Part shown: positions 44,402-59,544 of the stretch, in pieces | Position numbering within the stretch: position 1 is the first letter of the stretch | Layout of the letters: each line of letters begins with the position of its first letter | NCBI GenBank assembly: GCA_021850625.1 | Contig: JAJZLJ010000027.1 | Span: 23,389 to 87,388, forward strand | Origin: Candidatus Micrarchaeota archaeon | GTDB taxonomy: Archaea; Micrarchaeota; Micrarchaeia; Micrarchaeales; CABMGC01 | Reading direction: 5' to 3' | DNA length: 64,000 nucleotides | Made by a program: the position numbers and the translations under genes | The notes under the pieces: model-generated | Told to the model about the DNA's origin: nothing | Database searches by the model: none | The model's input: only the letters and a program-made list of their open reading frames with translations

Positions 44402-45844
44402 ATGGTAGATGAATTTAAGAAAGAAAAACTTAAGAAATTTTTAGAAATGAAGATTAATCCTTATCCATATACATATAAAAAAAATAATACCTCTGCGCAG
44501 ATAATAAAAAGCTTCGACACGTTTAATGGAAAGATGACTAGTGTTGCAGGGAGAATTATTAATATAAGAAAAATGGGAGGCATATACTTCATAGATCTTC
44601 AAGACTATGATGGAAAAATACAAATTGTAGTTAAAAAAGATACAATCTCTGAAAATACGCGAGAAGTTGTAGAGCTTTGCGATATTGCCGACATAATTGG
44701 AGTGGAAGGAAAAGTAATAAAGACTTCTAGAGGAGAGATAAGCATAGCCCTTGAAAATATAGAGATGCTTTCAAAATCCCTTAGGACACTTCCAGAAAAG
44801 TTTCATGGATTAAAAGATGTAGAACAGAGATACAGAAAAAGACATCTTGATTTTATAGTAAATCCCGAGATAAAAAGAAATTTCATAATAAGAGCAAAAG
44901 TTTTGAAGTACGTAAGAGATTTCTTAGATAACAGAGGATATATTGAGTTTGAAACGCCTGTTTTACAAGAGGTATATGGCGGGGCTAATGCAAAGCCATT
45001 TATTACAAAGCATAATGCTCTTGATGAACAGAGGTTTTTAAGAATCTCTGATGAATTGTATCTGAAAAGACTTGTTATAGGAGGTTTTGAAAAGGTTTAT
45101 GAGGTCTCTAAAGATTTTAGAAATGAGGATATAGATTCTACACATAATCCAGAGTTTACACAGATTGAGTGCTACGAAGCTTATAAGGATTATGAAGAGT
45201 ATATGAAAATGACTGAGGAGCTTCTTAGTGGCATGGTAAAGATGCTTTTTGATACGTATAAGATAAAATATCAAGATAAAGAGATAGACTTTACGCCGCC
45301 TTTTAAGAGAGTATATTGGGTTGATGAAATAAAGCAAAAAACAGGAATAGATATAGCTACGCTTACTGATAAAGAGGCAGAAAAAATAGCGGAAAAAGAA
45401 AAATTAGATATAAGCATAAAAAACAGTTTTCATGTTGCAGATGCGTTATTTGACAAGTATATAAAACAGGAGTTGAACAATCCATCCTTTGTAGTTGATT
45501 TCCCTGCATATATGTGCCCGCTTACAAAAGATAAAAGGGGTAATTCGCTTTTGAGCGAAAGATTTGAGCTTTATCTGGCACGCATGGAAATAGCAAACTG
45601 CTACTCCGAACTAACAGATCCAATTGAGCAAAGAAAGAAATTTGAGGAGCAGGAGCTAGAAAGAAAAAAAGGGGATGATGAGGCTCCTCCATCTGACGAA
45701 GAGTTTCTTCAGGCAATAGAGTATGGAATGCCGCCTACAGCAGGGCTTGGAATATCTATAGATAGAACAACTATGGTACTTACAGATAATATCTCAATAA
45801 AGGAGGTACTGGCTTTTCCAGCCATGAGAAAGGAAAATAAATGA
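44402..45844 (+). CDS. lysS: Lysyl-tRNA synthetase, class II
   Basis: An OB anticodon-binding domain is present. Class II motifs are FRNEDIDSTHNPEFTQIECYEAY and GLGISIDRTTMVL. Confidence 0.9.
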   Translation: MVDEFKKEKLKKFLEMKINPYPYTYKKNNTSAQIIKSFDTFNGKMTSVAGRIINIRKMGGIYFIDLQDYDGKIQIVVKKDTISENTREVVELCDIADIIGVEGKVIKTSRGEISIALENIEMLSKSLRTLPEKFHGLKDVEQRYRKRHLDFIVNPEIKRNFIIRAKVLKYVRDFLDNRGYIEFETPVLQEVYGGANAKPFITKHNALDEQRFLRISDELYLKRLVIGGFEKVYEVSKDFRNEDIDSTHNPEFTQIECYEAYKDYEEYMKMTEELLSGMVKMLFDTYKIKYQDKEIDFTPPFKRVYWVDEIKQKTGIDIATLTDKEAEKIAEKEKLDISIKNSFHVADALFDKYIKQELNNPSFVVDFPAYMCPLTKDKRGNSLLSERFELYLARMEIANCYSELTDPIEQRKKFEEQELERKKGDDEAPPSDEEFLQAIEYGMPPTAGLGISIDRTTMVLTDNISIKEVLAFPAMRKENK

Positions 45845-46042
45845 ATATGTAAAAACCAGGGGAAGATAGTTTATAGCATCTTTTTTACTGAAAGTTTACT
45901 TAAAGAATAGGTAGTTAGTTTTAGTTGTATATATTTGATGTGTTATTAAATATGCGGGTTAAAAAGCAAGTTTTAAATACTAATATGGATAAAGTATTAG
46001 CTAATAAGTTTTAAGCTTTACTGTATATATTATAAGGAAAAT

Positions 46043-46175
46043 GCCAGGGTGGCAGAATCCGGTAACGCGTACGCCTGGAAATTGAACCTGTCAGCGTATG
46101 GCTCTCGAGCCATCTGGGTTCAAAATAAAGCTTTTTGATTAATCAAAAGGCGTTATGGAAATCCCAGCCCTGGCG
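46043..46175 (+). tRNA. tRNA-Ser (GGA) with two introns (46081-46092 at position 37/38; 46125-46161 at 59/60 in the T loop)
   Basis: The acceptor is GCCAGGG/CCCUGGC. After splicing, the D loop is GAAUCCGGUAA and the anticodon arm is UACGC-CUGGAAA-GCGUA. The long variable arm is UGGCUCUCGAGCCAU and the T arm is CUGGG-UUCAAAU-CCCAG. Both introns sit in BHB motifs. A T5 tract follows the gene. Confidence 0.75.
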
Positions 46176-46223
46176 TTTTTAAGCTTAATAGATGTATATT
46201 TATATAATATAACTGGTGCATAA

Positions 46224-52698: not shown

Positions 52699-52737
52699 TC
52701 TATTTATAAGAACAGATAATTATTTGTAAAATATGAT

Positions 52738-52842
52738 TGCAGGGGGTGAGATTTGAACTCACGAAGGCGCTAAGCCACAGGATCTTAAGTCCTGCGCGTT
52801 TTTCCGTGGCTTGTGAGCCAGACCAGACTCTGCCACCCCTGC
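52738..52842 (-). tRNA. tRNA-Leu (UAA) with a 21-nt intron in the D loop (52801-52821)
   Basis: The acceptor is GCAGGGG/CCCCUGC. The anticodon arm is CAGGA-CUUAAGA-UCCUG, the long variable arm is UGGCUUAGCGCCUUC and the T arm is GUGAG-UUCAAAU-CUCAC. The spliced D loop GAGUCUGGUAA parallels that of tRNA-Ser. Confidence 0.75.
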
Positions 52843-52849
52843 ATAAAAA

Positions 52850-59469: not shown

Positions 59470-59544
59470 GGGCATGTGGCGTAACTTAGATAGCTCATCT
59501 TGCTTCGGACCAGAGGGTTACTGATTCAAATCCCGTCATGCTCG
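59470..59544 (+). tRNA. tRNA-like element (degenerate or atypical tRNA-Arg UCG?)
   Basis: The acceptor (GGGCAUG/CAUGCUC) and T loop (UUCAAAU) are good, and the anticodon loop is CUUCGGA. Several features are atypical: the D arm lacks GG and a regular stem, there are 2 extra nt at the position-26 junction, the anticodon stem has one mismatch and the T stem has two. Confidence 0.35.

Follow-up and report, generated by a model that had tools for sequence, protein, structure and literature searches.

A tRNA-Ser(GGA) gene with two introns, one of them in the T loop, in a Micrarchaeota genome

The locus at 46043–46175 (+) of the window (the whole stretch of 64,000 nucleotides that was analysed, G000:C2:23389-87388) is confirmed as a genuine tRNA-Ser(GGA) gene interrupted by two introns. 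It is very probably functional and vertically inherited, both introns being spliced from its transcript by the EndA/RtcB pathway. Its source is a metagenome-assembled genome (MAG) of the Micrarchaeota (ARMAN-2-like, DPANN), which comprises 808 kb in 32 contigs, has a G+C content of 33%, and is estimated to be 83% complete with 4.5% contamination. The original prediction, made by reading the window, had proposed the tRNA-Ser(GGA) identity and both intron positions. In-silico splicing, 55 orthologous gene copies with presence/absence variants, and covariation uphold it on both points, and all the coordinates and sequences that it quoted proved correct when checked against the sequence.

In the raw window neither ARAGORN nor the Rfam tRNA model at its gathering threshold reports anything at this locus. 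After in-silico removal of 46081–46092 and 46125–46161, ARAGORN recognizes an 84-nt class II tRNA-Ser(GGA) possessing a 7 bp acceptor stem, a 5 bp anticodon stem, a 5 bp T stem, a long variable arm, the anticodon loop CUGGAAA and the T loop UUCAAAU. If intron 1 alone is retained, tRNA-Ser(GGA) is recovered by ARAGORN -i with a 12-nt intron at the identical site; if intron 2 is retained, no tRNA is called by ARAGORN or the Rfam tRNA model. The gene is composed of the following segments, with the basis of each assignment in brackets:

46043..46080, + strand: exon 1, tRNA positions 1-37 (ARAGORN on the spliced sequence; exon conservation and covariation)
46081..46092, + strand: intron 1, 12 nt, site 37/38, relaxed hBH / bulge-helix-loop (ARAGORN -i; orthologs)
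46093..46124, + strand: exon 2, tRNA positions 38-59 (ARAGORN; covariation)
46125..46161, + strand: intron 2, 37 nt, site 59/60 in the T loop, strict hBHBh' (3-4-3) (sequence; pair check)
46162..46175, + strand: exon 3, U60, the 3' strands of the T and acceptor stems, and G73 (sequence; ARAGORN)

Exon 1 contains the 5' strand of the acceptor stem, the D arm, the 5' strand of the anticodon stem and residues C32 U33 G34 G35 A36 A37, while exon 2 contains A38, the 3' strand of the anticodon stem, the variable region, the 5' strand of the T stem and residues U54 U55 C56 A57 A58 A59. The acceptor stem is formed by GCCAGGG (46043–46049) and CCCTGGC (46168–46174), followed by the discriminator G46175; CCA is not encoded at the 3' end of the gene. 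The anticodon stem UACGC/GCGUA (46070–46074 / 46094–46098) closes 19 nt and not 7, and the T stem CUGGG/CCCAG (46114–46118 / 46163–46167) closes 44 nt and not 7. Among archaea, a long variable arm, a serine anticodon and G73 are the identity elements of tRNA-Ser. The spliced product has a 15-nt variable region with a covarying 4-bp stem, the anticodon GGA, and G73. The expectation that splicing would yield a textbook class II tRNA agrees with the class assigned by ARAGORN and falls short in the D stem, the third pair of which is an A.C mismatch (A46054.C46066). This position is G-C in 29 of 48 distinct orthologs and unpaired in 16, and the tRNA-Ser(CGA) of the same genome carries the same A.C.

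Both introns had been drawn as BHB motifs. For intron 2 the drawing stands, since all the pairs of a strict hBHBh' motif were verified. The T stem (46114–46118 / 46163–46167) acts as the outer helix; the central helix joins U54-A57 (UUCA, 46119–46122) to UGGA (46156–46159); the two bulges, of 3 nt each, are AAA (46123–46125) and AAU (46160–46162); and the inner helix (46126–46155) has 12 pairs and a UUAA apical loop. The central helix is not perfect, as had been claimed, but includes one G.U wobble (U46120.G46158). The register of the motif is kept in 40 of 43 distinct orthologous introns, in each of which the four-nucleotide stretch ending exactly 2 nt ahead of the 3' splice site is fully paired (4/4) to U54-A57. 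This is far above chance: shuffling the introns lowered the number to 0.8 on average (at most 5), and other offsets reached no more than 1. In one ortholog (L016) C55 is faced by G in the central helix. The inner segments of the orthologous T-loop introns are end-closed hairpins of unrelated sequence, for example GC...GC or UAAAC...GUUUA. The possibility that intron 2 carries cargo, such as a C/D box guide RNA, was considered and rejected, the intron being too short at 37 nt and its sequence unconserved beyond the closest relatives. Free-energy folding of the 133-nt precursor did not return the BHB structure (-41.9 kcal/mol for the proposed structure versus -49.9 kcal/mol for the optimum), and thermodynamics was not counted as evidence for it.

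For intron 1 the drawing needs amending, for it has no inner helix and is a relaxed bulge-helix-loop rather than a full BHB. Three of the four positions of its helix are paired (C46075-G46090, G46077-C46088 and G46078-C46087), with a mismatch at U46076xU46089. The 3' bulge is UCA (46091–46093), the 5' AAA (46079–46081) merges into an 8-nt loop, and the strict hBHBh' form is precluded by the U.U mismatch and by the lack of an inner helix, which cannot form from the 5 nt separating the 5' bulge from the helix. The intron corresponds to the relaxed class (hBH / bulge-helix-loop) reported in PMC6379350 and PMC3239211. Among the orthologs, the central helix is at least 3/4 paired in 50 of 51 distinct introns; U33 is mismatched, facing a pyrimidine, in 44 of 53 copies, and C32, G34 and G35 pair with the intron. 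Because its motif is relaxed and lacks an inner helix, it is the intron at the canonical position that needs a tolerant enzyme.

The runs of A at the junctions bear on where the cuts are placed. Four registers (56/57 to 59/60) give one identical product for intron 2, as do two (37/38 or 38/39) for intron 1, so the junctions are not readable from the sequence alone and it is BHB geometry that selects 59/60 and 37/38. It is conceivable on these grounds that the gene is functional and the same mature tRNA is made by cleavage 1–3 nt away from the BHB prediction, at 56/57-58/59 for intron 2 or 38/39 for intron 1, and in an ortholog subgroup (CCCGGA|A type) intron 1 does pair better with a 2-nt than with a 3-nt 3' bulge. 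We regard such shifted cuts as very unlikely. The central helix of intron 2 is paired only when 2 intron nucleotides lie in the 3' bulge (40/43 versus at most 1 elsewhere), and ARAGORN and all the orthologs fit 37/38 for intron 1. In a 3-4-3 BHB motif the two cuts fall at symmetric positions of the bulges. The 2-nt register places both cuts of intron 2 at these symmetric positions (motif: PMC6379350), which argues again for the predicted junctions.

The comparative evidence comes from a BLAST search of 60 related genomes, belonging to the two main families of the same order plus one other genome, in 53 of which the locus was found. Including the window copy, the ortholog set holds 55 gene copies from 54 genomes, one of which (L012) was read by eye. 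An insert is present at 37/38 in 54 of the 55 copies (10–24 nt) and at 59/60 in 45 (13–43 nt); nine copies have the 37/38 insert only, and a single copy (L057, in G037) has neither. Copies that are free of the T-loop intron read GGGTTCAAATCCC, the very junction predicted for the window, and have the T loop UUCAAAU. The sole intron-less ortholog reads CCTGGAGAGCG, in agreement with the predicted junctions. With the Rfam tRNA model this ortholog scored 59.2 bits and two single-intron copies 47.8 and 41.7 bits; copies with a T-loop intron were missed by the model even at E <= 1. Mean identity to the window copy is 0.91 for the exons and 0.57 and 0.50 for the introns, which also vary in length.

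When the 48 distinct spliced sequences were laid on the cloverleaf, 98.5% of cells were paired (19–54% in slid controls), a value inflated for the anticodon and T stems, which the ortholog parser required to be paired in setting intron boundaries, and unaffected by the parser for the D stem and variable arm and, apart from a 6-of-7 filter, for the acceptor stem. The parser was passed by 54 of the 55 copies found by BLAST. Compensatory double changes occur in 11 of the 24 cloverleaf pairs, and every one of the five helices has some, among them the stems flanking each intron. Chance resemblance to a tRNA is excluded by this covariation together with the conservation and the intron-less orthologs.

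The 59/60 intron may conceivably predate the split of the order's two main families and have been retained by selection and not by drift, the ten copies that lack it representing independent precise losses. This is a speculative reading to which only a low probability can be given. On the same reading, the selective grounds may be, for example, that elements integrating into tRNA genes find a poor target in an interrupted one, or that the structure of the pre-tRNA is needed in processing or modification. One related MAG (G031) contains two copies of tRNA-Ser(GGA), L014 (G031:C148) and L062 (G031:C64), one having both introns and the other the 37/38 intron only; either the bin is mixed or the gene has truly been duplicated.

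The original prediction had named, as observations that would count against it, differently placed junctions in mature tRNA reads, or a second, intron-less tRNA-Ser(GGA) coupled with silence of this locus. The intron-less copy does exist. It lies at G000:C20:3714-3797 (-) on a contig of 3.8 kb and scores 47.9 bits. It shares 63% identity with the window gene after splicing, its T loop (UCCGAAU) is unusual, and none of the 60 related genomes yielded a counterpart. The adjacent P-type ATPase is only 41–49% identical to its homologs in the order, those from the same genus included, while EndA is 64–70% identical within the genus. Given the divergence of the tRNA, its lack of counterparts and the low identity of the ATPase, contig C20 is most likely co-binned or horizontally acquired DNA. 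An ORF of 179 amino acids adjoins the tRNA gene; the idea that it is an integrase fragment was dropped, as it has no significant Pfam or PHROGs match. The 4.5% contamination estimated for the MAG is accompanied by other duplicated, diverged contigs. Contig C7 repeats part of the gene order of C21, namely tRNA-Glu(UUC), a dCTP-deaminase-like ORF and EndA, the two EndA proteins being 75% identical, and second copies of tRNA-Val(CAC), tRNA-Phe(GAA) and tRNA-Cys(GCA) likewise occur on separate contigs. Two related populations have probably been merged in the MAG, and the C7 copy of EndA probably derives from the co-binned one.

With an intron-less tRNA-Ser(GGA) in the same MAG that could in principle supply the function, the window locus might be seen as a decaying or silent gene that has been replaced, its inserts being tolerated junk and not spliced introns. 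We hold this to be highly improbable. Two families of the order share the two-intron architecture, the exon sequence and the register of the BHB motif, and compensatory changes are seen in all helices; a pseudogene would not have retained these features. The putative replacement is itself a doubtful member of this genome, as its sequence divergence, its odd T loop, its absence from the 60 relatives, the short contig with its 41–49% identical ATPase, and the contamination and diverged duplicates of the bin all indicate. The conservation evidence outweighs the C20 copy, which leaves the conserved two-intron gene unshaken. Against a functional gene with two spliced introns can also be set the free-energy difference of the folds (-41.9 vs -49.9 kcal/mol), the U.U mismatch and missing inner helix of intron 1, and the A.C of the D stem.

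The enzymes which splicing would require are encoded in the genome. EndA, a protein of 385 amino acids (G000:C21:3613-4767), matches the catalytic domain and the N domain of tRNA intron endonucleases twice each, in one frame. Its residues 9–385 align with residues 11–387 of the epsilon2 EndA of ARMAN-2 (4FZ2; E = 1.3e-146), at an identity of about 65–70% as estimated by eye from the alignment. Y233, H249, K280 and K158 align with the catalytic residues Y236, H251 and K282 and the ASL lysine K161 of 4FZ2, the roles of which are described in PMC6379350. With its single chain, its three-unit layout (alphaN, alpha, betaC), its Tyr-His-Lys triad and its ASL lysine, the protein belongs to the epsilon2 type, which is characterized by a length of about 390 amino acids. 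The same three-unit EndA was found in 60 of 60 relatives searched, and RtcB is also encoded in the genome. In vitro, the ARMAN-2 enzyme cleaves a strict intron at the canonical site as well as a relaxed one of 13 nt at 59/60 (Fujishima et al. 2011, PMC3239211). If the broad specificity of this ortholog is carried over (PMC3239211), the genome encodes an endonuclease that should be able to cut relaxed motifs, as well as an RNA ligase. A splicing endonuclease of broad specificity had been anticipated from the introns, with examination of the EndA architecture proposed as a check; that check was run and an epsilon2-type EndA is what it returned.

From these features the following pathway can be proposed. 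Driven by the gene's own TATA-like promoter, transcription would yield a pre-tRNA of about 133 nt and stop at an oligo-T run. The three-unit epsilon2-type EndA would cut the relaxed motif in the anticodon arm, releasing the 12-nt intron at 37/38, and would cut the strict 3-4-3 motif, to which the T stem and the four leading bases of the T loop contribute, releasing the 37-nt intron at 59/60. RtcB would then join the three exons into the 84-nt class II tRNA, to which CCA would be added later. What the analysis establishes is the structure of the gene, its conservation and covariation, the conserved BHB register and the presence of the enzymes; transcription, the exact phosphates at which cleavage occurs and splicing in vivo are inferred. 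The putative signals for transcription are:

46010..46019, + strand: TATA-box-like TTTTAAGCTT, putative archaeal promoter, 24–33 nt upstream of the tRNA (sequence)
46176..46180, + strand: five consecutive T immediately 3' of the discriminator, putative archaeal oligo-T terminator (sequence)

A/T-rich elements of the TTTAAAT / TTTTAA type occur at a similar upstream distance in most orthologs, and T-runs are also present 3' of the gene in the closest relatives.

A pattern scan of the genome revealed at least four more tRNA genes with introns at 59/60. ARAGORN accepts all four of the following once they are spliced:

C32:6112-6251, + strand: tRNA-Ser(CGA), 59/60 intron plus a 14-nt anticodon-stem insert around 30/31 (pattern scan, ARAGORN)
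C9:21758-21863, - strand: tRNA-Ala(GGC), 59/60 intron (pattern scan, ARAGORN)
C9:23367-23453, - strand: tRNA-Pro(AGG), 59/60 intron; the wobble position would be A (pattern scan, ARAGORN)
C21:60892-60989, - strand: tRNA-Arg(UCU), 59/60 intron (pattern scan, ARAGORN)

The closest known system is that of ARMAN-2. The tRNAs of ARMAN-2/Micrarchaeota have already been described as heavily disrupted, site 59/60 included, examples from ARMAN-2 being pre-tRNA-Cys(GCA), whose 59/60 intron is 13 nt long, and pre-tRNA-Pro(GGG), whose T loop is interrupted twice (PMC3239211). The two organisms belong to the same phylum and share the 59/60 site with the T stem as outer helix, more than one intron per gene, an epsilon2 EndA, and the disruption of a large share of their tRNA genes. 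They differ in that the gene described here specifies a Ser GGA tRNA and comes from another genus, and in the distribution of motifs: the 59/60 intron of the ARMAN-2 tRNA-Cys is relaxed hBH, whereas here the 59/60 intron is strict hBHBh' and that at the canonical position is relaxed. With regard to the enzyme (4FZ2 / 9W2K; Hirata et al. 2012, PMC3488258; PMC12397907), the alignment is end to end and the catalytic Tyr/His/Lys and ASL lysine are kept. The protein described here is an ortholog from another genus, known from its sequence, and is accompanied by the second, 75% identical copy on C7.

Likenesses extend to the Thermoproteales and other archaea with an (alpha-beta)2 EndA, in which BHB introns occur at 37/38 and at non-canonical sites including the T loop, and in which multi-intron tRNA genes are likewise accompanied by a broadly specific endonuclease (Marck and Grosjean 2003; Sugahara et al. 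2008; both as cited in PMC6379350 and PMC3239211). The (alpha-beta)2 enzyme is a heterotetramer with a Crenarchaea-specific loop, unlike the single-chain, three-unit type found here (a homodimer with an ARMAN-2-specific loop). Broad specificity was acquired convergently in these unrelated lineages, (alpha-beta)2 versus epsilon2 (PMC6379350).

A two-intron tRNA-Ser(GGA) is therefore expected for this lineage, its mechanism, insertion site and enzyme having already been described. No new question is opened by it, and its value lies mainly in annotation and in a comparative data set on intron gain and loss. As standard finders miss tRNA-Ser(GGA) and at least four other tRNAs of this genome, Micrarchaeota MAGs seem to lack essential tRNAs unless BHB-aware tools are used. 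A picture drawn so far from ARMAN-2 alone is extended by the presence of an epsilon EndA in 60 of 60 relatives, and the persistence of the two-intron tRNA-Ser in most of them, with patchy and precise intron losses, provides a data set for the gain and loss of archaeal tRNA introns. With lengths of 13 to 43 nt, the T-loop introns are also usable for studies of the minimal substrate of the epsilon2 enzyme.

The tRNA-Ser(GGA) gene lies between a gene for a class II LysRS-type synthetase and the S13-S4-S11 ribosomal protein genes, and the spot just upstream of S13-S4-S11 is the conserved position of this tRNA gene. The synthetase, directly upstream at 44402–45844 (+), is a class II (Asp/Lys/Asn-type) aminoacyl-tRNA synthetase with an OB anticodon-binding domain. 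The 10-mer TTTTAAGCTT is repeated at 46177–46186 (+), between the tRNA and the start of S13 (46224), and the pair may represent two similar promoters back to back. Elsewhere in the window, ARAGORN in intron mode gives a tRNA-Arg(CCT) with a 24-nt intron at 52737–52843 (-), its anticodon at an implausible offset; this is a further disrupted tRNA that is mis-called by standard tools. A degenerate tRNA-like element, with 28.8 bits against an Rfam threshold of 29, is located at 59470–59544 (+).
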